Positions 51,684 to 63,637 of a stretch of DNA of 64,000 nt are shown here, in pieces (within the stretch, counting starts at the first letter, position 1; each line of letters begins with the position of its first letter). The notes beneath the pieces were generated by a model that did not search any database, had not been told where the DNA came from, and worked only from the letters and a program-made list of their open reading frames with translations. The translations under genes were made by a program, and so were the position numbers. Origin of the DNA: Candidatus Aenigmatarchaeota archaeon (GTDB lineage Archaea > Aenigmatarchaeota > Aenigmatarchaeia > Aenigmatarchaeales > JACQIB01); assembly GCA_016198755.1 (NCBI GenBank), contig JACQIB010000001.1, positions 1-64,000 of the forward strand, read 5' to 3'.

Positions 51684-52454
51684 ATGGTAACGGCACTTCC
51701 AATGGAAACTCTAACTGTTCAGCCTGCTGTTTCAGGACGTTTAGACATACTCAAGGGATATAACTTAGAAATGGATCCACGCCTTACAATAACAGGCAAA
51801 AATCTTTACAAGTCTAGAGAACTTGTACCAAAAGACTTTAGAATATCCACAGCAGCTGAAGAGCTTGCTTTGCAGCTTGCTGAGGAGGCAGCTGGCAAAG
51901 ACCCAAGACAAGCTACAGTATTCGATGACCTTTTTGCAAGGAATGAAGGCCAAGTGTATGTATTTCAATGGACAGAAACAGGCCTGCGTGTGCCCAAGGG
52001 AACGCAACCAGAGTATTTCCAGACAGATTCGAATGGCAGCAAGTATTATCCAAGAATTGTTCTTATTGGAGATAAGGAAGTGGGAGAGGTTCTTGTTCCA
52101 GAAGGAGACGGAAGAGTTGTTACAAAATGGGATAAGGTGTTTGGACTGCCAGCAGAAACAGAGAGTATAAAGTTCCCTCACACACCTTACACTACACACT
52201 TTAGGTTTAATTCAAATCCACAAAAAGACCCTGTATCAGGACAACAGGATGTTGCCGTCGGTCGCAGGAGCAACTGGCCTCACTTTGAGAACGAGAGGTG
52301 CCTGAACGTGGATTCGGACTACGAACGCTGGGGTGCGGGTTCGGATGGTGGCTTCCGTCTAGTTCGGGGTTCAGTCCAGGTGATTGAGAGGCGCAGAATT
52401 AGCCTCGAGGCAGATGCTGTACAGAAAGCATTAGCTTCTGTAGGGTCAGGATAA
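51684..52454 (+). CDS. Hypothetical protein with a C-terminal CLec/FGE-like variable-region motif (candidate DGR target)
   Basis: VAVGRRSNW...GFRLVRG, encoded by a GC/CpG-rich segment. Confidence 0.6.
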   Translation: MVTALPMETLTVQPAVSGRLDILKGYNLEMDPRLTITGKNLYKSRELVPKDFRISTAAEELALQLAEEAAGKDPRQATVFDDLFARNEGQVYVFQWTETGLRVPKGTQPEYFQTDSNGSKYYPRIVLIGDKEVGEVLVPEGDGRVVTKWDKVFGLPAETESIKFPHTPYTTHFRFNSNPQKDPVSGQQDVAVGRRSNWPHFENERCLNVDSDYERWGAGSDGGFRLVRGSVQVIERRRISLEADAVQKALASVGSG

Positions 52455-53603: not shown

Positions 53604-54641
53604 ATGGAGGAAATACAAAAAATACTGGCTGAAATAAAGCCATACATAGACAAGGAAGTTATATCACTTTTGGAAAAAACACAGCCGGAAATCCTGAAGA
53701 AAGCTGCATTTGAGTATTTTGCGCGCGGAGGGAAAAGATTTAGGCCAGCTTTAACGGCTTTATCATGCGAAGCTCTTGGAGGTATATGGCAGGATACAAT
53801 ACCAGCCGGAGCAGCAATAGAGATAATGCATGCTTTCGCCCTTATACATGACGATATAGAAGACTATTCAGAAATCCGCAGGGGAAAGCCAGCACTCCAT
53901 ATACAATATGGCCTTCCGCACGCGATAAACGCTGGAGATTATTTGCATATGAAAATTTTCGAGGCTCTTTTGCGCGGGCAAAAAGCATGGGGGAATGAAA
54001 AATTATTTTCAGTTCTGGAGCAGTTTGTAGAGCTTTTAATAATAACAGCGCAGGGGCAGGCAATGGAAATTGAAATGAGAGACAAGCCTTTAGAGGAGGC
54101 AACAATGGAATGGTATGAAAAGATGGCTGTTGCAAAAACAGGCTATTATTCCGGCGGGGGACCCTGTGCGATAGGTGCAACAATTGCTGGTGGAACAAGA
54201 GAGCAAATAGCAGCGCTGAAAAAGTTTGGGATTGCAATTGGAGTTGCTTTCCAGATACAGGATGATGTTCTTAACTTGACAATGAGCGAATCCGAAGAAA
54301 AATTGACTCCAGAAACAGGCGGGGGAGGTGTTGGAAAGGATTTTGCAGGTGATTTGGAGGAGGGAAAGAGGACTTTGATTTTGATTCACTGCTTACAAAA
54401 ATGTTCTGGGCATGAAAAGGAAAAATTCAGGGTTTTAATTGGCAAAAAAGGCCTGAAAACAGAACAAAAGAAAGAGTTAATTGCAATAATACAAAGCACA
54501 AAATCCATAGAGTTTGCAAAAGAATATGCAAGGGAAATGTTGCAGAATGCTTTACTCCAGCTTAAGGAAAAAATCCCTGAAACAGAAGGAAGAAAGAAAC
54601 TGGAAGCAACAGCGCAGTTTCTTATAGAGAGAAAATATTAG
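53604..54641 (+). CDS. idsA: Polyprenyl (geranylgeranyl) diphosphate synthase
   Basis: GGKRFRP, HDDIED..RRG, GQAME, KT and FQIQDD motifs. Confidence 0.92.
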   Translation: MEEIQKILAEIKPYIDKEVISLLEKTQPEILKKAAFEYFARGGKRFRPALTALSCEALGGIWQDTIPAGAAIEIMHAFALIHDDIEDYSEIRRGKPALHIQYGLPHAINAGDYLHMKIFEALLRGQKAWGNEKLFSVLEQFVELLIITAQGQAMEIEMRDKPLEEATMEWYEKMAVAKTGYYSGGGPCAIGATIAGGTREQIAALKKFGIAIGVAFQIQDDVLNLTMSESEEKLTPETGGGGVGKDFAGDLEEGKRTLILIHCLQKCSGHEKEKFRVLIGKKGLKTEQKKELIAIIQSTKSIEFAKEYAREMLQNALLQLKEKIPETEGRKKLEATAQFLIERKY

Positions 54642-54719
54642 CCAATTGTCGTAGTCGTCAATAAATCAAATCAACAGAAAAGCTTTTTATTCTTAGTTTA
54701 CCCCTTTAATTGAGATTTT

Positions 54720-56132
54720 ATGCCCAGCAAACCAGTTGGAATAGAAGCAATGTATGTTTACACTCCTCAATTTTGTGTAACTTCTGAAACATTAGCAAAC
54801 GCAAGGGGCGCAAAATTAACACATTTTACAGAAGGAATAGGTATAGGTTCCTTTTCATTCCCCCCACCAAATGAAGATCATGTAAGTATGGCAGCAACAG
54901 CAGCATTAAGGCTGATGAAAGAACAAGATATAGATCCAAGGGATATAGCAAGGATTGATTTGGCAACAGAAAGCAGCAGGGAGGGTTCAAGGGGAGCTCC
55001 TTCTGATGTTGTAGGAGCATTGGAACAGGCTTTTGGTACAAACAGCTTTCGCCACGTAGCTGGTGTAGAATATAAGTTTGCTTGCATTGGTGGCGTAGAA
55101 GCTCTTAGAAATTCATGTGCACTAGCTGCACCAGACTGGCTTCCAGAAGGGAGACATAATATTGTTATAGCAACAGATTTTGCAAGATATCATTTAAGGA
55201 GCGGTGAGGAGCCAACACAGGGAGCTGCAGCAGCAGCATTATTGATAGGCAGGAAACCAAGGCTTTTGGAGATTGTACCCCGTGCTTATGGTTCAGCAAT
55301 GAGATATGAACCCGGAGACTTCAGCAAGCCAGGCGGAAGATCCATAGCGAATGTAAATGGAGGGCTATCTGTAGGTTCCTATTTAAGTGAAATGAGAACA
55401 GCTTGGTCAGGTTTTATAGCTGCTGTTAAAGAAACAGGATTTATAGTACCTTCTTCAGGGATGTGCGTAAGCGACAGTATAGACAAAGGAATTTGGCATA
55501 ATCCTCACCTGAAACAAGTGCAATCTGCTCATGCTTCCCTACTAATGCATGAATGGATCGGCTTGCCTTCAAAGCAGGATATTTTCAGAAACTTAGGCAC
55601 CCCTCCAGAAAGAGGCGAAACTCCGGATCATGTATTTTATGCTAGTCAGCCCTATAAGGATTATAGAAAACGTTTCATGAAAGAGCCAGTGGTTGTAAGG
55701 GATTTCGATAAGAGGATAAAACCCTCTACTGTTGCTCCTTTCGATATAGGCAATTCTTATTCTGCATCAGTTTTTGTTGGTATTGACAGCCTTTTTGAAA
55801 CAGACCCAGAAGACTTGGCAGGCAAAACAGTTGTTTTGGCTGGTTATGGTAGCGGAAGCCATGCTCTGATACAGGCAACCAGAGTTCCAGAAGATTATAT
55901 GCCTGTAGCAAAAAGGCTTGATTTAATGAATAGGCTGAAAAGAAGAGAACACCTCAGCATAGGCGCATATGAAACATGGCATGATTTTCATGATGGCGTA
56001 CAAAGTGGTCTTGTGAAGCCAAGTGATATTAGCTTGCCAAGATCTTTCGCTAGTCCAACGTTCGTTCTCTCTTCAGTTGGTGCCATCAAAAGTCCGACAG
56101 AAGGACAGAGAACCTATGCTTTGGTAGCATAA
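54720..56132 (+). CDS. mvaS: HMG-CoA synthase (long, bacterial/haloarchaeal-like type)
   Basis: ATES, FACIGG, EPTQGA, HNP, GNSYSAS and GYGSG motifs. Confidence 0.88.
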   Translation: MPSKPVGIEAMYVYTPQFCVTSETLANARGAKLTHFTEGIGIGSFSFPPPNEDHVSMAATAALRLMKEQDIDPRDIARIDLATESSREGSRGAPSDVVGALEQAFGTNSFRHVAGVEYKFACIGGVEALRNSCALAAPDWLPEGRHNIVIATDFARYHLRSGEEPTQGAAAAALLIGRKPRLLEIVPRAYGSAMRYEPGDFSKPGGRSIANVNGGLSVGSYLSEMRTAWSGFIAAVKETGFIVPSSGMCVSDSIDKGIWHNPHLKQVQSAHASLLMHEWIGLPSKQDIFRNLGTPPERGETPDHVFYASQPYKDYRKRFMKEPVVVRDFDKRIKPSTVAPFDIGNSYSASVFVGIDSLFETDPEDLAGKTVVLAGYGSGSHALIQATRVPEDYMPVAKRLDLMNRLKRREHLSIGAYETWHDFHDGVQSGLVKPSDISLPRSFASPTFVLSSVGAIKSPTEGQRTYALVA

Positions 56133-56170
56133 TTTAGAAAGCATTTAAACAGCTGTGATAAATTAGATTC

Positions 56171-56584
56171 ATGTTCAATCCATTCAGGCAGAGGATAATG
56201 GTTACTGCGGTTTTGAAAAATGGAAAAAAATTCCTTTTGCTGCACAGGAAGAAGCTGGGAATACAGGGAGGCAAGTGGCAGTTGCCTGAAGGAGGTCTGC
56301 ATTTTGCTGAAACCCCTGAGCAGGCTTTGATAAGAGAGATGAGAGAAGAAACAGGCCTTTCCCTGCGGGAAGCAAGGCTTTTAGGAGTTCATACTTCCAC
56401 AATGAGTGAGCTTGGAAAACCTCTATACCATGTAATAAGGCTGTTTTACTCCTGCAAAGCCGCAGGAAAAATAAGGCTAAGCAGGGACCACCCAGAGTTT
56501 ATCTGGGTTACGAGAGAGGGTATAAGAAAGCTTAAATTGTTTGAAGGACTAAGGTGGGGGGAAATAAAAAAGTTTTTGCGTTGA
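56171..56584 (+). CDS. NUDIX hydrolase
   Basis: GG.....ETPEQALIREMREETGL Nudix box. Confidence 0.88.
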   Translation: MFNPFRQRIMVTAVLKNGKKFLLLHRKKLGIQGGKWQLPEGGLHFAETPEQALIREMREETGLSLREARLLGVHTSTMSELGKPLYHVIRLFYSCKAAGKIRLSRDHPEFIWVTREGIRKLKLFEGLRWGEIKKFLR

Positions 56585-56589
56585 TTAAA

Positions 56590-57612
56590 ATGGTGTATAT
56601 TGGAACAGCAGAGGCAAGCCCTAACATGCCTTTTGTAAAATACTGGGGAAAAAGAAATGAAGCTCTAATTTTGCCAATGAACTCAAATATTTCAGCAACC
56701 TTCGACTCCAGTCTGGCAACACGCACAACTGTTTTCTTTTCTGAATCCTTGAAAGCCGATGAACTCTGGATAAACGGAAAGCAGTTTCCTCCTGAAAGTT
56801 TGGATAAAGCAATTCCCCAGCTAAACATAATCAGGGAGTTAGCTGGTATACAGATGTTTGCTAAAATATATTCTATAAGCAAAGTTCCTGTTGCAGCTGG
56901 TCTTTCAAGTTCTTCAGCAGGATTATGTGCTTTGGCTCTGGCGTCTGCTTCAGCGCTCGGGCTTAAACTGCCGGCAGAAGAGCTTTCAATTATCTGCAGG
57001 CGCGGCTCAGGCAGTTCCTGCCGCTCAATCTATGGGGGATTTGTAGAATGGGTAAGAGGGGACAAAACAGATGGTTCAGATTCTTATGGTGTACAGATAG
57101 CAGATGATAAACACTGGCCAGAACTCAGAATGCTTGCAGTTTCCATTGAGGAAACAGAAAAAAAGGTTAAAAGCAGGGCAGGAATGAAACAGACTGTTTT
57201 AACTTCCACACTGTATCAAAAACGATTACAGGATATTGGGAATACACTGGATTCTGTAAGGAATGCTATAAGGAACAAGAACTTCCAATCTTTAGCAGAA
57301 TTAACAATGAAAGAAAGCAATAACATGCACGCAGTTTGTATGGATACATGGCCTCCAATACTTTACCTGAATGACAATTCAAGGACTGTTATACAATCTA
57401 TACATGATTTCAACGAGGGCGGGCTGCGCGCAGCCTATACTTTTGATGCTGGCCCAAACCCCTATATTATAACAGAGGAAAAGAACCTAAAGTCTGTTCT
57501 GGAGCTCTTGAAAAAAATGAGTTTCATAAAACATATTTTTATCTCAAAGATAGGCGGAAACCCAAGAGTTCTGGAAGAACATTTGCTGAACGAAAAAGGG
57601 AAACCCGTATGA
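56590..57612 (+). CDS. mvaD: Diphospho-/phosphomevalonate decarboxylase
   Basis: NMPFVKYWGKR, AAGLSSS, GSGSSCRS, SRAGM and TFDAGPN motifs. Confidence 0.93.
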   Translation: MVYIGTAEASPNMPFVKYWGKRNEALILPMNSNISATFDSSLATRTTVFFSESLKADELWINGKQFPPESLDKAIPQLNIIRELAGIQMFAKIYSISKVPVAAGLSSSSAGLCALALASASALGLKLPAEELSIICRRGSGSSCRSIYGGFVEWVRGDKTDGSDSYGVQIADDKHWPELRMLAVSIEETEKKVKSRAGMKQTVLTSTLYQKRLQDIGNTLDSVRNAIRNKNFQSLAELTMKESNNMHAVCMDTWPPILYLNDNSRTVIQSIHDFNEGGLRAAYTFDAGPNPYIITEEKNLKSVLELLKKMSFIKHIFISKIGGNPRVLEEHLLNEKGKPV

Positions 57613-58061
57613 GCCTTGATAAATCAGTTCATTTGAGCGCGGGAGCTTTAGTTTTCTCAGGGAATAAAGTACTTGCAATAAAAAGGCTGAAAGAACCTTT
57701 CAAGGGAAACTGGTCTGTTGTTGGTGGGCATGTAGAAGAGAAAGAACTTCCTAATGAAGCTGCTGTCAGGGAAGTAAAAGAAGAAACAGGGCTTGATATA
57801 GAGCTTATAGACCCGTACATAGAGATTCCTGTAGAATTCTCAGAAGGCTTAAAGCGCCTGCCCCAGCCAATTCTTGTTTCTCTTCTCCCTGTAAAAGACC
57901 ATTACCACATCTCATTCACTTATGCTGCAAAAGCAAAAAGCACAGAGATAAAAATAAACAACATTGAAGGTCTTGTACAGTGGATAGATACGAACAATAA
58001 AGAAATTTCACCTCACCTGCGTTTAGCAATAGACACATACAAAAGAGTTTTGGGAGCATGA
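57609..58061 (+). CDS. NUDIX hydrolase
   Basis: GGHVE..E...EAAVREVKEETGL Nudix box. Confidence 0.88.
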   Translation: MSLDKSVHLSAGALVFSGNKVLAIKRLKEPFKGNWSVVGGHVEEKELPNEAAVREVKEETGLDIELIDPYIEIPVEFSEGLKRLPQPILVSLLPVKDHYHISFTYAAKAKSTEIKINNIEGLVQWIDTNNKEISPHLRLAIDTYKRVLGA

Positions 58062-58113
58062 AAATAAAAAATAAAGGTTTTTATTTGCTTGGAAAAACCA
58101 TGGAGGTTTTCCC

Positions 58114-58857
58114 ATGAAAGCAATAATTTTTGACCTTGAGGGGGTTTTATGCGATACGAGAGAGTGGATGAACCATTCTGTGCGCTCTGCTTTTTTTGAG
58201 CATGGTATAGAGCTCGAATTCTCTGATAAGGAGCTTTACAATATACGCGGCTGCGCAGGCTGCTTGAATTCCCCAGAATGGATACAGGTTCTTTTAGCAT
58301 TCAATGGAAAAAATTATATTAACAAAATATACGAACTGGACAAACCAGAGGAGTTTATAGTCTCTGTACTTGAAAAGGAAAAACCAGACAAGCTTTTAGC
58401 AGGTGAGATAAACAAAACCTACAGGGAAATTTACTATTCCCAGAAAAACCAGTTCCGCACTCCCCTCTCAGGAATTAAAGAAGTTCTTGAAAAGCTCAGG
58501 CCAAATTTTTCTTTTGGTATTTTCTCAAACACAAAGCACGATTCTATTCTAAAATTGTTGGATAACGCAGGCATAAGAGGATATTTTTCTATTGTTGTTG
58601 GGCAGGAGGATGTTTCAAAACAAAAACCAGATCCTGAAGGTTTGTTAAAGGCAATTGCAGAATTAAAATCCACACCGCAGGAAACTATCTATATTGGCGA
58701 TACAGCTTCAGATGTGCAGGCAGCGCGTGCAGCAGGCTGTGTTCCAATTGGTCTGCTGACTGGAATGGGAATTGAGCGCTGGCTGCGCGCAGCAGGTGCT
58801 GTCCATATTTTCCCAACATTGAAAGAATTTATCCAAAGTACGGCAATCGTACAATGA
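58114..58857 (+). CDS. HAD-superfamily phosphatase
   Basis: FDLEGVL, SN, KPDP and IGDTASD motifs. Confidence 0.88.
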   Translation: MKAIIFDLEGVLCDTREWMNHSVRSAFFEHGIELEFSDKELYNIRGCAGCLNSPEWIQVLLAFNGKNYINKIYELDKPEEFIVSVLEKEKPDKLLAGEINKTYREIYYSQKNQFRTPLSGIKEVLEKLRPNFSFGIFSNTKHDSILKLLDNAGIRGYFSIVVGQEDVSKQKPDPEGLLKAIAELKSTPQETIYIGDTASDVQAARAAGCVPIGLLTGMGIERWLRAAGAVHIFPTLKEFIQSTAIVQ

Positions 58858-58963
58858 ACGTCAATCTACTCTTCCGGAAGCATAGCCTTTATATACCTTT
58901 TCCCCGAGTTCTGTTTTTTAACTCCTATAAATCCTTTTCAACAATAGGAGTAAAGGGGATTAT

Positions 58964-60025
58964 TTGAGGCTATTGGAAACAGATGCAAAAGAACTCTTAT
59001 CAAAAGCTGGAATTTCTGTCCCAACAGGGAAAAGAGTGAGTACAGCAGCTGAGGCTGAAGCAGTAGCCAGAGAGATAGGAGAAGTTGTATTAAAGGTTCT
59101 GGGGAAGAAGGGAAGGGGAAAGGCAGGAATGATAAAGTTTGCAAACTCTCCTGCAGAAGCATTTGAGGCAGCAAAGGAGCTTTTAGAAAAATCAGATGAG
59201 GGTCTTATAATTGAGAAAAAGCTGGATATTCTGGAGGAGCTCTATGTTGCCTTTGCAGTTGATTTTTCAATAAGCAAGCCTGTTTTGATTGTTAGCAAGA
59301 AGGGAGGTGTGGAAATAGAAAACCAGGCGGATGTTAAAAAAATACCTATAAACATTCTGCGCGGGCTTACAGCAGAGCAGGCAGGCGAGGCTGTTGCCTA
59401 TCTAGGACACGCAGAGCTTTCACCCTTCCTCCAATTACTGTACAAGCAATTTAGGAAAATAGATTCGGAGCTTTTGGAAATAAATCCTTTAGCTATTACA
59501 GCCAATGGAGCTTATGTTGCTGATGCTCTAATTGAAATAAATGATGACAGCCTTTCCCGCCAACCTTTCAGGCAAGAAACGCCAACTGGAGGCATTGAAG
59601 CGGAGATGGCAGGTGCTGGCTGGTCCTACCATGATTTGGGGGGAAGTGTGGGATTAATCTGCTCTGGTGCAGGCTTGTCAATGGCTACACTTGATTTAAT
59701 CCAGATTTTCGGTGGAAAGCCGGCTAATTTTTTGGACATGGCACAAGTGGATGGAGACGGGATATATAGAGGATTGGAAATACTCTCGAAAAAACAAGGA
59801 GTCCGCTCAATTATTATCAGCCTTTTTGCAGGGTTGAACAGGTGCGACAGCATGGCAGAGGGTATTACAAGGTTTGTAAGGGAGAAGGGGCAGAAAGTGC
59901 CAATAATTGTAAGGATGGTTGGGAACAGAGAGGAGGAGGGTTTTGCAATACTGCGTTCTATTGGCTTAGAGCCCTATAAGGAACTGGAAGCAGCCGTAAA
60001 AAAGGCAGTTGAGGTGGCTGTGTAA
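58964..60025 (+). CDS. Succinyl-CoA-synthetase-like CoA ligase, beta (ATP-grasp) subunit, atypical
   Basis: GRGKAG, EINPL, GAGLSMATLD, PANFLD and RCD motifs. Confidence 0.85.
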   Translation: MRLLETDAKELLSKAGISVPTGKRVSTAAEAEAVAREIGEVVLKVLGKKGRGKAGMIKFANSPAEAFEAAKELLEKSDEGLIIEKKLDILEELYVAFAVDFSISKPVLIVSKKGGVEIENQADVKKIPINILRGLTAEQAGEAVAYLGHAELSPFLQLLYKQFRKIDSELLEINPLAITANGAYVADALIEINDDSLSRQPFRQETPTGGIEAEMAGAGWSYHDLGGSVGLICSGAGLSMATLDLIQIFGGKPANFLDMAQVDGDGIYRGLEILSKKQGVRSIIISLFAGLNRCDSMAEGITRFVREKGQKVPIIVRMVGNREEEGFAILRSIGLEPYKELEAAVKKAVEVAV

Positions 60026-60900
60026 TGGCAATTCTTGTAAATAGTGAAACAAAGGTTTGCGTGCAAGGTATAACAGGGAAAGCAGGAACCCTGCACACTG
60101 GCACAATGCTGGAATATGGAACAAAAATAGTTTCAGGTGTTAGGCCAGGAGCTGAAGGGGAGGAGGTTTTGGGAATACCTGTTTTTAACAGGGTCTCCAC
60201 TGCTGTGGAGGAAACCGGAGCAAACAGTTCCATAATTTTTGTGCCTGCAGCAATGGCTAAAGGTGCTGCACTAGAGGCAATAAATGCCGGAATAAAGCTT
60301 ATTGTAATAATACCTGAGCATGTCCCTTTGCATGATGAGCTTGAGATAATGCAGGCAGCTGAGGACTCGGGAATTGTTGTGGTTGGTCCAAACACTCCAG
60401 GGTTAATAGCCCCCTCACTTAAATGTAAAATTGGCTTTGTACCAAACAAATATTATATACCAGGTTCTGTTGGAGTAATGGCACGCTCAGGAACTTTAAC
60501 TTATGAGATTGTCTCCCGCCTTACTTTGGCTGGAATTGGGCAGAGCACTGCAATTGGAGTAGGTGGTGACCCTGTTATTGGGAGCAGGTTCCCTGACCTG
60601 ATTAAAAAATTTGAGGCAGATCCTGAAACAAAGGTTATTTTGCTTATAGGAGAAGTTGGTGGAACCCAAGAAGAGGAGGCTGCAGCTCTTGTTGCTGATG
60701 GAAAAATAAAAAAGCCTGTTGTAGCCTATATTGCAGGCTTCTCAGCTCCCCCAGGGAAAAGGCTTGGGCATGCAGGTGCGATAATTTCAGGCTCACAGGG
60801 GACCATGGAGTCCAAACTTAAATCCTTTCAAAAAGCAGGAATAGCTGTTGCCAAAACCCCTTCAGAAGTTTTGGATCTTGTGAAACAAAAATTGAGATGA
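60025..60900 (+). CDS. Succinyl-CoA-synthetase-like CoA ligase, alpha subunit
   Basis: QGITG, GPNTPG, RSGTLTYE, GVGGD and phospho-His GHAGA motifs. Confidence 0.9.
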   Translation: MAILVNSETKVCVQGITGKAGTLHTGTMLEYGTKIVSGVRPGAEGEEVLGIPVFNRVSTAVEETGANSSIIFVPAAMAKGAALEAINAGIKLIVIIPEHVPLHDELEIMQAAEDSGIVVVGPNTPGLIAPSLKCKIGFVPNKYYIPGSVGVMARSGTLTYEIVSRLTLAGIGQSTAIGVGGDPVIGSRFPDLIKKFEADPETKVILLIGEVGGTQEEEAAALVADGKIKKPVVAYIAGFSAPPGKRLGHAGAIISGSQGTMESKLKSFQKAGIAVAKTPSEVLDLVKQKLR

Positions 60901-60904
60901 TAAA

Positions 60905-62371
60905 ATGGTAGCAGGTATTGAAGATAGAAGAATATTGGAAGACGCGAGAAATGATGTTAGTGGTATAGTAACTAGTATTGCATCCCAATTGCAACATGGT
61001 ATGCATCTTTACAAGGCACCAGAGACTGTTAGAACTTTATACGGGCTTCCACAGACAGATGAAGCCAGTGAGAAAAAGTGCAGAGCCTATGCTGCTGCAG
61101 CTATCAGGAGATTTTTTGCAGAAAAGTATGGAGTGGATACGGTAGCTTTGGCAAGCACTGCCATAGTCCCGCCTCTGGTTAAAAAATCTAAAAAACTTGA
61201 AAATGGAACAACCGTAGATTTATGGGAGTCAAAAATGCCAAATTATATGGGAGGAGGAGTTGGAGGAAGACCTGTATCTGTTGTCGGGCCTGCAACATTA
61301 GAAATAGAAGTTTACGATAATATAAATGGAAAAGGAGAACCAATAAAAGAGAATGTCGTTTACATTCCGCTTGCACCAACAAGATTTGGTGTTGCTGAAG
61401 GTGTTAGCGCAGGATTAAAATATATTGCAGATTCTGGAAAACCAATAAAATTGAAAGTTGAAAGTATAAGCAGGGTAACGAGGTCCCCTGTATTTAAGTT
61501 TCCTACAGAAGCAAGTGCGGAAAGTGCTGCAAACAGTATTGGTGCGGGTGTTAGAAGTCATTTGGAAACAGAAGATAACGGAAACCTATTTGGAGAAATA
61601 AAGGGACTGGCAGACAAACTAATGAAAGGACATAACGGTTCTCTCGAAGGTCTGCACGCTGTTACTCTGGGTCCATACTTATGGGCAAATTTTGTCTATG
61701 AAATGAGCGGGGATAATTATGGGCACGAAGCTGTAACAGCCGTTACCAGAGAAGTGGTAAGAGAGGTGCTTCTAAAAAAATTGCCTCATGCAGAATTAAA
61801 AATGCTTGCAGGAGGGTTGGATGGTGACTTAAGACCTGCAACCAATCGATATGGTCGTATGGGAAACATCAGGGGAAGATGGGTTACTGCTTCAGCAGAG
61901 ATTACACCAGAAACCCTTAAAAAGAGGTTTGGAAATATAAGTCCGGAAGGATTAGCAGAGTTAAATAACTTAAAGCAGAAGGGAAACGAGATTCTAGGTA
62001 CGCATACTTTAGCTGGCATGGGGCCAGAGATTGTTGAAGGAGTGTTTTATGCGCTTGAGCCCCCAACCTCCCCATTCCTCTCCTCTACAATTAGTATGGA
62101 AACAAATGTTAAAGGTGATAGTTTAATACTAAATGCTATATTCCATAATATGGAAGTGGGCACAGTGCGGGAGGGTCCACTTTCAGATATAGCAAGCGAA
62201 TGCAGGGCTATTACAGGGAACATAGATGGGGCAGGAAACCCGATAGGCAGGAATGCGGTAAGAATGGCTGCGCGCATTGCTGCAGCAACTTTAGCTGGGG
62301 AGCTAAACCAATATGCACAAATGGCAACAGGAAGATTAGGAATGGAAGCCTATAGGAATGGAAAGCCATAG
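60905..62371 (+). CDS. Degenerate HMG-CoA reductase-like protein lacking the catalytic residues
   Basis: Colinear with class I HMGR (YIPLAPT, VTRSPVF, RGRWV.A, MEVGTV, AAATLAGEL), but the E/K/D/H motifs are altered. Confidence 0.7.
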   Translation: MVAGIEDRRILEDARNDVSGIVTSIASQLQHGMHLYKAPETVRTLYGLPQTDEASEKKCRAYAAAAIRRFFAEKYGVDTVALASTAIVPPLVKKSKKLENGTTVDLWESKMPNYMGGGVGGRPVSVVGPATLEIEVYDNINGKGEPIKENVVYIPLAPTRFGVAEGVSAGLKYIADSGKPIKLKVESISRVTRSPVFKFPTEASAESAANSIGAGVRSHLETEDNGNLFGEIKGLADKLMKGHNGSLEGLHAVTLGPYLWANFVYEMSGDNYGHEAVTAVTREVVREVLLKKLPHAELKMLAGGLDGDLRPATNRYGRMGNIRGRWVTASAEITPETLKKRFGNISPEGLAELNNLKQKGNEILGTHTLAGMGPEIVEGVFYALEPPTSPFLSSTISMETNVKGDSLILNAIFHNMEVGTVREGPLSDIASECRAITGNIDGAGNPIGRNAVRMAARIAAATLAGELNQYAQMATGRLGMEAYRNGKP

Positions 62372-62374
62372 AGA

Positions 62375-63637
62375 GTGAAAAGAATGGAACAAGAGCAGAT
62401 TAATGATTTGGTGGAGAAGCTGGAAAGCGGGGCCGTAAAGCTGCATGAGGTTGAAAACTTTACAGCAAATGATAGCAATGCAGCCACAATTGTACGCAGG
62501 GTTTATCTGGAAAAAAAACTTGGCTTCCCATTAAAGCACATTGGCTCAACTATAGTGGACTTTAATGATTCCATAAGCAGGAATATCGAGAATCCAATAG
62601 GAGCGGTGCAAATCCCGCTGGGGTATGCTGGAGATATGAAAATAAACGGAGACCATGTTTCTGGAACAGTCCCAATTTTAATGGCAACAACAGAAGGCAG
62701 GCTTGTTGCCGGTGTTGCAAGGGGAATAACTGTTGCCAATAGGGCTGGAGGTGTAAATGTTTCTGTTCTAAAAGATGGCATGACAAGGGATGTGCTTGTA
62801 AGGACAGGCGGTGCAAAAGAAAGCGCAACCCTTGCAAAATGGATAATGACAGAGGAAGGGTTTAACTTGCTGAAAGAGGGATTTTCAAAAACCACAAAGC
62901 ACGGTAAGCTGAAAGAAGTCAGGCCATATGTTATTGGAAGGGACACACATTTGAGGTTCAAGGCTGAAACGGGCGCTGCAATGGGCATGAATATGCTTAC
63001 AATAGCTGGGAAAGCCGCTGTGGATTATATTTTGCCTAAACTAAAGGAAAAAGGTATAAATGCTTTTGTTGTTTCAGAATCAGGCAATTTATGCTCAGAT
63101 AAAAAACCGGCTTTCATTAATGTTATTGAAGGGCGCGGAGTAACTCTAACAGCAGACATTGTTGTTCCACCTGAAGTTTTGAAGGAGAGGTTCAGGGTTT
63201 CAGCAGCTGCAATAGCAGATCTCTGCAAATCAAAAAACCTTATAGGATCAGCCCTTGCAGGTTCACATGGCTTTAACGCTCATTTTGCAAATATTTTGGC
63301 TTCCATGTTCATGGCGTTCGGGCAGGATGTTGCTCAGATTGTAGAAGGGTCACAGGGGGTAACTGATGCGGCTGTTCTTGAAGATGGCTCTCTCTATTTC
63401 TCTTGCTATCTGCCTGCGATAGAAGTTGGAACCTATGGAGGAGGAACTAAAAGGGAGACGCAAAAAGAGGCTTTGAAGATAATGGGACTCTATGGGGAGA
63501 ATGATCCTGAAGGTATAACAAGACTGAAACTGGCAGAAATTATTGGAGCAGCCTGCCTTATTGGAGATTTGAATCTGTTAGCAATTCAGGCTGCAGGAGA
63601 ACTTTCTAAAACCCATGGCTCAATCAAGAGGGGGTAA
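62375..63637 (+). CDS. hmgA: HMG-CoA reductase, class I
   Basis: ENPIG, MATTEG, AMGMNM, SGNLCSDKK, GQDVAQ, VGTYGGGT and C-terminal His. Confidence 0.95.
   Translation: MKRMEQEQINDLVEKLESGAVKLHEVENFTANDSNAATIVRRVYLEKKLGFPLKHIGSTIVDFNDSISRNIENPIGAVQIPLGYAGDMKINGDHVSGTVPILMATTEGRLVAGVARGITVANRAGGVNVSVLKDGMTRDVLVRTGGAKESATLAKWIMTEEGFNLLKEGFSKTTKHGKLKEVRPYVIGRDTHLRFKAETGAAMGMNMLTIAGKAAVDYILPKLKEKGINAFVVSESGNLCSDKKPAFINVIEGRGVTLTADIVVPPEVLKERFRVSAAAIADLCKSKNLIGSALAGSHGFNAHFANILASMFMAFGQDVAQIVEGSQGVTDAAVLEDGSLYFSCYLPAIEVGTYGGGTKRETQKEALKIMGLYGENDPEGITRLKLAEIIGAACLIGDLNLLAIQAAGELSKTHGSIKRG

Follow-up and report, generated by a model that had tools for sequence, protein, structure and literature searches.

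HMGR-fold proteins without the reductase motifs are encoded next to a variant CoA ligase in two archaeal phyla

The open reading frame (ORF) at 60905-62371 on the plus strand of the window, a 64,000 nucleotide (nt) stretch of Candidatus Aenigmatarchaeota DNA, codes for an intact class I 3-hydroxy-3-methylglutaryl-CoA (HMG-CoA) reductase (HMGR)-fold protein that lacks the catalytic motifs of the reductase. It belongs to a previously undescribed clade of at least 15 proteins, named hypothetical protein in the sources, for which we coined the name psHMGR. The gene is located directly downstream of the two genes of a variant succinyl-CoA synthetase (SCS)-type ligase, here termed beta′ and alpha′, and directly upstream of the gene for a true HMGR. 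We tentatively propose that the ligase makes HMG-CoA from free hydroxymethylglutarate, with psHMGR as its non-redox, thioester-handling partner. The window comprises positions 1-64000 of contig C5 of genome G000 (0.89 Mb, 6 contigs, 89% complete), which shares its order with a metagenome-assembled genome (MAG) labelled Candidatus Aenigmatarchaeota.

The HMGR fold and the lost reductase chemistry

The 488 amino acid (aa) protein starts with ATG and is matched by PF00368 over residues 141-478 with 44.1 bits (E 1.8e-11, Pfam cut-off 27); the neighbouring true HMGR reaches 340 bits on the same model. In BLASTP the two proteins are 30% identical across 182 residues (E 2e-12), and a profile made from 13 family members aligned end to end with the archaeal HMGR of PDB entry 6hr7 (E 1.1e-29). 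AlphaFold2 yielded a model with a pLDDT of 90.2 and a pTM of 0.90. The input alignment for this model contained true HMGRs, and the sequence evidence is therefore the independent line of evidence for the fold. Foldseek found human HMGR as the best match of the model (E 2.8e-24), and VIA-align superimposed it on 6hr7_A with a Z score of 33.5 and a root mean square deviation of 2.4 Å over 319 residues, while class II HMGRs scored about 24 and the best non-HMGR fold 8.9. The HMGR fold put forward by an earlier reading of the letters of the window (the sequence-only reading) is thus backed by Foldseek, the family profile and VIA-align alike, and it is shared across the N, L and S domains with class I HMGR (EC 1.1.1.34; 6hr7 from Methanothermococcus and 1dq8 from human). 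The equivalog test failed, as psHMGR scored 59.8 on TIGR00533 (NCBIfam) against a cut-off of 441.8; the true HMGR, with 403.1, is below this cut-off as well.

PMC7503714 gives Glu559, Lys691, Asp767 and His866 (human numbering) as the catalytic residues of HMGR, and the loops DAMGxN (Met657, Asn658) and GTxGGG as those binding NADPH. Human residue numbers were converted to chain index by subtracting 421, which was verified at the TTE motif (chain index 138). Alignment of the family profile with 1dq8 showed that all four catalytic residues are replaced: E559 by R160, K691 by L309 (leucine or methionine in the family) and D767 by proline, and H866 has no counterpart. The NADPH contacts M657 and N658 are H274 and E275 in psHMGR; the DAMGMN loop reads DNYGHE (D-x-Y-G-H-E in psHMGR), and the GTxGGG loop reads EVGT-VREG, with E423-G in place of GGG. 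The ENVIG strand of the subunit interface is likewise altered, to NY[LM]GGG. The sequence-only reading had listed changes of TTEG to PTRF, AMGMNM to NYGHEA, SGNLCSDKKP to AGGLDGDLRP and GQD to EPP, as well as the loss of the C-terminal His, all of which were seen in the alignments. Other pocket residues of HMGR are retained or conservatively changed (D690 is D308, K692 is R310 and K735 is R325). R193 is retained too, and equivalents of D690, K692, K735 and R590 are common to both proteins.

A word-indexed search with psHMGR found three relatives at 67%, 40% and 39% identity, and an exhaustive search yielded 92 matches with E values up to 1e-3. Some twelve of them are devoid of the reductase motifs and have the new ones; those of the others that were checked by motif are ordinary HMGRs. 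Across 13 family sequences 39 columns are invariant, many of them at the former active site. The signature H274, D306, D308, R323-G-R325, G371, E375, S393-S394, E417, E423 and N468 is invariant in all 13. In an alignment of 10 sequences, with 8 further clade members and one true HMGR among its rows, each of these residues is either invariant or conserved to 90% or more. These further members include a distant subfamily (P0015, P0051, P0033, P0077, P0088) in which a zinc ribbon with four cysteines is inserted near the N-terminus. Even here H274, D306, D308, R323, R325, E375, S393, S394, E417 and E423 are kept, although R160 is not. One zinc-ribbon protein, P0088, is labelled by its source as coming from a Pseudomonadota MAG.

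The term pseudo-enzyme, which the sequence-only reading had used, does not describe the protein well. The lost residues are exchanged for a set that is itself invariant in the clade (His274, Asp306, Arg325, Glu375, Ser393/394, Glu423), and the pocket therefore looks like a rebuilt site and not like an abandoned one. A non-catalytic pseudoenzyme would hardly be expected to have polar residues that are invariant at the old pocket, although this does not settle the matter. Orthologues of psHMGR, 28-67% identical, were found in two archaeal phyla. Comparison of the related Micrarchaeota loci L004 and L005 gave a ratio of nonsynonymous to synonymous substitution rates (dN/dS) of 0.078 for psHMGR, 0.064 for HMGR, 0.096 for alpha′ and 0.130 for beta′, which bears out the expectation of conserved orthologues under selection. 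Together, the homologues found by the word-indexed search and this purifying selection exclude chance. The loss of every catalytic motif and a Pfam score far below that of the neighbour would also be seen in a decaying, functionless tandem duplicate of hmgA, but we consider decay highly improbable in view of the intact frame of 488 codons, the orthologues in two phyla with their 39 invariant positions, the low dN/dS and a gene order that is fixed at all seven loci described below.

In a quick maximum-likelihood tree with 52 rows psHMGR, represented by 12 of them, is recovered as a single clade (SH-aLRT 100), and we propose that this clade arose once from class I HMGR; its stem is too long for the root to be placed among the HMGRs. 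In the same tree the cassette HMGRs of the two phyla likewise group together in one clade (SH-aLRT 100), which suggests that the cluster moved between DPANN lineages. A profile scan detected psHMGR in two of 371 genomes of the window's phylum (G000 and G027), where 24 further genomes matched through true HMGRs only, and psHMGR is present in three of 401 sampled genomes of the Micrarchaeota phylum (G002, G003 and G679). When genomes were scanned with the alignment that includes a true HMGR, 77 of 80 loci turned out to be ordinary HMGRs. Fused forms were not found among relatives of 268-854 aa or 855-2440 aa, and a plasmid search with P0051 gave no match. Full-text literature searches returned no description of an HMGR-fold protein without the catalytic tetrad; as far as the literature searched shows, psHMGR would be the first non-reductase protein with this fold. 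In the Micrarchaeota genome G408, one HMGR match (C3:2161-3420) holds an in-frame TGA.

Gene order and the variant ligase

In the window the four genes are tightly packed on the plus strand. The beta′ gene (58964-60025, 353 aa, Pfam ATP-grasp_2 and Ligase_CoA) overlaps the alpha′ gene (60025-60900, 291 aa, Pfam CoA_binding and Ligase_CoA) by 1 nt (TAATG), and alpha′ is separated from psHMGR by 4 nt. The sequence-only reading had placed an intact 488 aa ORF 3 nt before the adjacent HMGR, and this is what is found. The true class I HMGR (62375-63637, 420 aa, PDB 6hr7 with E 4e-103) carries TTEG, AMGMNM, DKK, GQD, GGG and the C-terminal His; it starts with GTG at 62375, and if ATG at 62384 is taken instead, the gap becomes 12 nt.

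The ligase has the same domain architecture as SucCD. On the NCBIfam models alpha′ passes SucD (379.5 bits, cut-off 336) and beta′ fails SucC (244.7 bits, cut-off 370). The best PDB match of beta′ is 3ufx_B (E 7e-56), which has the canonical loops GGGA and FGGITRAD. In their place beta′ has the substrate loops NFLDMAQVDGD and LFAGLNRCD, and these variant loops are invariant in seven cassette sequences. NFLDxAQxD and FAGLNRCD thus stand against NFLDxGGGA and FGGITRxD in Thermus SCS and in canonical relatives from the same phylum; in the C-terminal domain AQxD replaces the GGGA of SucC and FAGLNRCD its FGGITRCD. Huang and Fraser are said to have described these two C-terminal-domain loops as the succinate site in 2016. 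The conserved change is in the substrate loops of beta′, while alpha′ is ordinary and keeps its phosphohistidine motif GHAGA (His249), which is invariant in 20 of 20 aligned sequences.

Within the window's phylum only G000 and G027 have the variant beta′ (more than 500 bits, next best 303 bits), and the variant loops are in none of the 10 next-best beta′ loci. Nine genomes of the Micrarchaeota sample carry it (436 bits or more, next best 308), three with and six without psHMGR. A plasmid search with beta′ returned canonical relatives only, at 35% identity or less, and a scan of viral contigs gave one relative at 30%. In G593 the longest beta′ frame, counted from the first start codon that follows a stop in frame, has 595 aa (L176 4692-6479), with about 220 N-terminal residues more than other beta′ sequences; the extra part matches no Pfam family, and it could be due to an over-long start-codon call.

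The genes for beta′, alpha′ and psHMGR are contiguous at all seven loci with context (the window, L003, L004, L005, L085, L086 and L144), among which L004 and L005 are close kin. The tie to the neighbouring CoA ligase at the entry of the mevalonate pathway, which the sequence-only reading had drawn from one locus, is thereby supported. HMGR follows psHMGR directly, with gaps of 3-12 nt, at five of the six loci whose downstream flank can be seen. The G679 trio has no adjoining HMGR and is located among genes for a transporter, a regulator, an alcohol dehydrogenase and unrelated proteins; the HMGR of this genome is encoded on another contig, belongs to another lineage and is 39% identical to that of the window. 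This separation makes the ligase, and not HMGR, the tightest partner of psHMGR.

The variant ligase is in turn linked to HMGR where psHMGR is missing. At five of the six Micrarchaeota ligase loci without psHMGR a true HMGR adjoins the ligase or is two genes away: directly after alpha′ (three loci), divergently upstream (one) or two genes downstream (one). At the sixth, the contig ends 416 nt past alpha′. These HMGRs carry the TTE, DKK, GQD and GGG motifs. A ligase-HMGR link thus exists without psHMGR, which, judged by gene order, looks like a tandem HMGR duplicate inserted between ligase and HMGR. The variant ligase was not found within the flanks (up to 10 kb) of any of 77 other HMGR loci from other archaea, and the literature searches gave no description of a ligase-HMGR operon.

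The sequence-only reading had considered psHMGR to be a regulatory or scaffold subunit in a possible HMGR heteromer. In such a role psHMGR would tune or anchor HMGR without catalysis, for instance in a dimer of dimers. HMGR directly after psHMGR at most loci and the single clade formed by the cassette HMGRs of two phyla would agree with such a subunit, as would the architecture of class I HMGRs, described in PMC7503714 as dimers and tetramers with active sites between subunits. Combined with that architecture, the changes in both half-sites of psHMGR imply that a mixed core dimer would be left without a complete active site. Moreover, psHMGR lacks the ENVIG strand of the interface, the G679 psHMGR gene is found with the ligase while HMGR is elsewhere and of another lineage, ligase-HMGR pairs occur without psHMGR, and a mere scaffold would not need invariant replacement residues in its pocket. 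We therefore regard a regulatory heteromer as quite unlikely, and as less likely than a partnership with the ligase; a dimer of dimers is the form in which it could still apply. Taken as a whole, the earlier interpretation is partly supported.

Several other genes were seen beside the ligase. EamA-family transporters adjoin it in two Micrarchaeota genomes (L144 6488-7723, L175 6977-7852) and could import its acid substrate. M20-family amidohydrolases, 39% identical to each other, are encoded beside the ligase-HMGR pair in two genomes (L176 8267-9388, L177 5561-6781). ORFs of 275-297 aa with unknown function that adjoin the ligase are unlike each other, and none of them has a relative in G000.

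A possible entry into the mevalonate pathway

The fold, residue changes, conservation, selection, gene order and phyletic pattern reported above are the basis of our proposal; its substrate, physical contacts and chemistry we infer. In giving up hydride chemistry and NADPH binding, psHMGR would have fixed other polar residues in the old pocket and become the third component of a module with the beta′alpha′ ligase. With ATP and CoA, the ligase would turn free 3-hydroxy-3-methylglutarate (HMG), or some closely similar compound, into what HMGR takes as its substrate. The mevalonate pathway would then be entered by salvage or by an alternative route, for which thiolase and HMG-CoA synthase would not be needed. 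psHMGR, with the retained basic residues that hold the HMG carboxylate, may bind HMG or HMG-CoA beside the ligase and transfer, sort or hand over the thioester without reducing it. It might transfer CoA in the manner of EC 2.8.3.13 or choose the correct arm of the prochiral acid; the true HMGR would then produce mevalonate.

Three known systems led to the proposal that the ligase feeds HMGR with HMG-CoA. The first is FcrA (PMC11948995), a fatty acyl-CoA reductase with its origin in class I HMGR. It shows that an HMGR paralogue can acquire another role, and in some genomes its gene is near the acid-activating fadD. According to the same paper, FcrA has the four catalytic residues, uses NADPH and remains a reductase; psHMGR has lost all of these features, and identification as FcrA failed. 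The second is succinate-hydroxymethylglutarate CoA-transferase (EC 2.8.3.13), reported in PMC8085960 to make (S)-HMG-CoA from free HMG, so that HMG activation is real biochemistry. This enzyme is a family III CoA-transferase, to which the psHMGR fold is unrelated. PF02515, the model of that family, had no match in any of 10 ligase-carrying genomes, which leaves no contrast for a complementary distribution of the CoA-transferase.

The third is ATP-citrate lyase, or citryl-CoA synthetase plus lyase (6hxj, 6hxq). Here SCS-type beta and alpha genes are followed by a third gene, an order identical to that of the cassette, and in both cases the third gene derives from an enzyme that binds a 3-hydroxy-3-substituted acyl-CoA. 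The cassette differs in that its third protein has the HMGR fold and not the citrate-synthase fold and beta′ lacks Citrate_bind; lyase activity is no more than an analogy. G000 itself encodes a split ATP-citrate-lyase-type system on the minus strand (L083 6663-9478; contig C3, about 103.6-106.5 kb) with a 389 aa beta subunit containing Citrate_bind, a 299 aa alpha subunit and a 249 aa citrate-synthase C-terminal protein, which is a likely source of acetyl-CoA from citrate in this small genome. A second ATP-citrate lyase formed by the cassette was judged unlikely in this genome, since citryl-CoA synthetase and lyase are already there.

The distribution of the early pathway enzymes is in part consistent with an HMG-activating ligase. 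G027 (92% complete) has the trio, HMGR, the kinases, the decarboxylase and IDI2, and gave no match to thiolase or to three HMG-CoA synthase models. No thiolase match was found anywhere in the genome of G000, in which a divergent HMG-CoA synthase is present. HMG-CoA synthase was detected in 253 of the 401 genomes of the Micrarchaeota sample, among them four of nine ligase carriers versus 49 of 56 HMGR carriers without the ligase (Fisher p 0.008, a value that ignores kinship, as related genomes are not independent). Among all ligase carriers, four of five with psHMGR have the synthase and one of six without (p 0.08).

A number of observations weigh against our proposal. Three of the five psHMGR genomes (G002, G003 and G679) encode both the canonical archaeal HMG-CoA synthase and thiolase, and in Micrarchaeota psHMGR thus occurs alongside the complete classical route; with the divergent synthase of G000 added, psHMGR fills no obvious hole. 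Since those three genomes have thiolase, psHMGR as a substitute for thiolase was rejected. The HMGR carriers of the control set were picked by matches to the psHMGR profile (E 1e-15), which misses some true HMGRs, for example in G575 and G593, and the absences of synthase and thiolase rest on incomplete MAGs, with completeness not established for the Micrarchaeota sample. The variant ligase is far wider spread than psHMGR: 94 of the best 120 beta′ homologues in a large protein collection have the variant loops and 24 the canonical ones, and some variant-loop homologues are named Aminicenantes, Thermodesulfobacteriota or Deltaproteobacteria by their sources. Because of this spread its substrate need not be HMG, and acetate, acetoacetate or another monocarboxylate could be accommodated just as well by the new Gln and Asp in the loops of beta′. 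A bacterial branch of psHMGR likely exists as well, given that P0088 is named Pseudomonadota and that a structural neighbour in the Atlas is a 54-member cluster, mostly Thermodesulfobacteriota; the Atlas feature search, with scores of 0.79 or less, was judged not usable. Finally, free HMG is not known as a common metabolite in archaea.

Alternatively, the cassette might be a new enzyme outside the mevalonate pathway, in which the ligase makes some acyl-CoA and psHMGR cleaves or converts it at a site built on a metal or on carboxylates, much as ligase and lyase are paired in ATP-citrate lyase; its association with HMGR in DPANN archaea would then be secondary. The bacterial spread of the ligase, the bacterial-looking psHMGR branch and the autonomous trio of G679 with its transporter, regulator and alcohol dehydrogenase neighbours would fit, as would the cluster of invariant His, Asp, Glu and Arg, which resembles an active site, and the parallel in the gene order of the genome's own citryl-CoA beta-alpha-lyase system. 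On the other hand, a true HMGR stands beside the ligase at five of six loci both with and without psHMGR, HMG-CoA synthase is depleted in ligase carriers, and psHMGR derives from a fold that binds HMG-CoA and retains the equivalents of D690, K692 and K735. We consider such an enzyme somewhat unlikely and retain HMG activation by the ligase, with psHMGR as its partner, as the working proposal.

A more far-reaching version, about which we are rather doubtful, would be that ligase and psHMGR together form a new two-part, ATP-driven enzyme on the ATP-citrate lyase plan, with a thioester module recruited from HMGR. With HMGR it would provide a thiolase- and HMG-CoA synthase-independent mevalonate entry from imported or recycled HMG in host-dependent archaea, and it would have relatives in anaerobic bacteria. 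In PMC11052028 all variants of the mevalonate pathway are regarded as having their first steps in common. A ligase welded to HMGR, enriched where HMG-CoA synthase is missing and sometimes accompanied by a rebuilt copy of the reductase, calls this common entry into question for DPANN archaea. It points to a different source of HMG-CoA, with implications for the way in which symbionts with reduced genomes make or salvage their lipids.

The isoprenoid gene cluster of the window

A possible archaeal TATA box, TTTATATA, was read from the sequence at 58888-58895 on the plus strand and may serve as a promoter element. It is located 69 nt before the beta′ start, in the one larger gap (106 nt) that precedes the four genes. 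Four sequencing runs contain this stretch, all of them DNA, with no RNA run listed. On the same strand this gap is preceded by an isoprenoid cluster (53604-58857, Pfam and NCBIfam assignments), which begins with a polyprenyl synthase (53604-54641) and the divergent HMG-CoA synthase (54720-56132, 470 aa). The latter is below every NCBIfam cut-off (best 198 bits versus 800). The cluster continues with genes for a Nudix protein, diphosphomevalonate decarboxylase, a second Nudix protein and a HAD phosphatase, and then with the four tightly packed genes. Beyond the window three GHMP kinases, IDI2 and a GpsA-type glycerol-3-phosphate dehydrogenase follow.

The two small Nudix hydrolases and the HAD phosphatase within the mevalonate operon (56171-58857) may be prenyl- or mevalonate-phosphate phosphatases; the cluster at L003 also has a Nudix gene, together with an HD-domain gene. 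The bacterial-type, NAD-dependent GpsA that ends the archaeal isoprenoid cluster after IDI2 (L084 4354-5298, plus strand; G000 C5 about 68354-69298) deserves attention with regard to the stereochemistry of the lipids of this archaeon. Elsewhere in the window, a 256 aa ORF that belongs to no Pfam family (51684-52454) is located upstream of the gene for the tRNA methyltransferase Trm1. On the minus strand of L083 (13744-15879), the gene for glucosamine-6-phosphate synthase (GATase and SIS domains) is split by an intein with a LAGLIDADG endonuclease domain.

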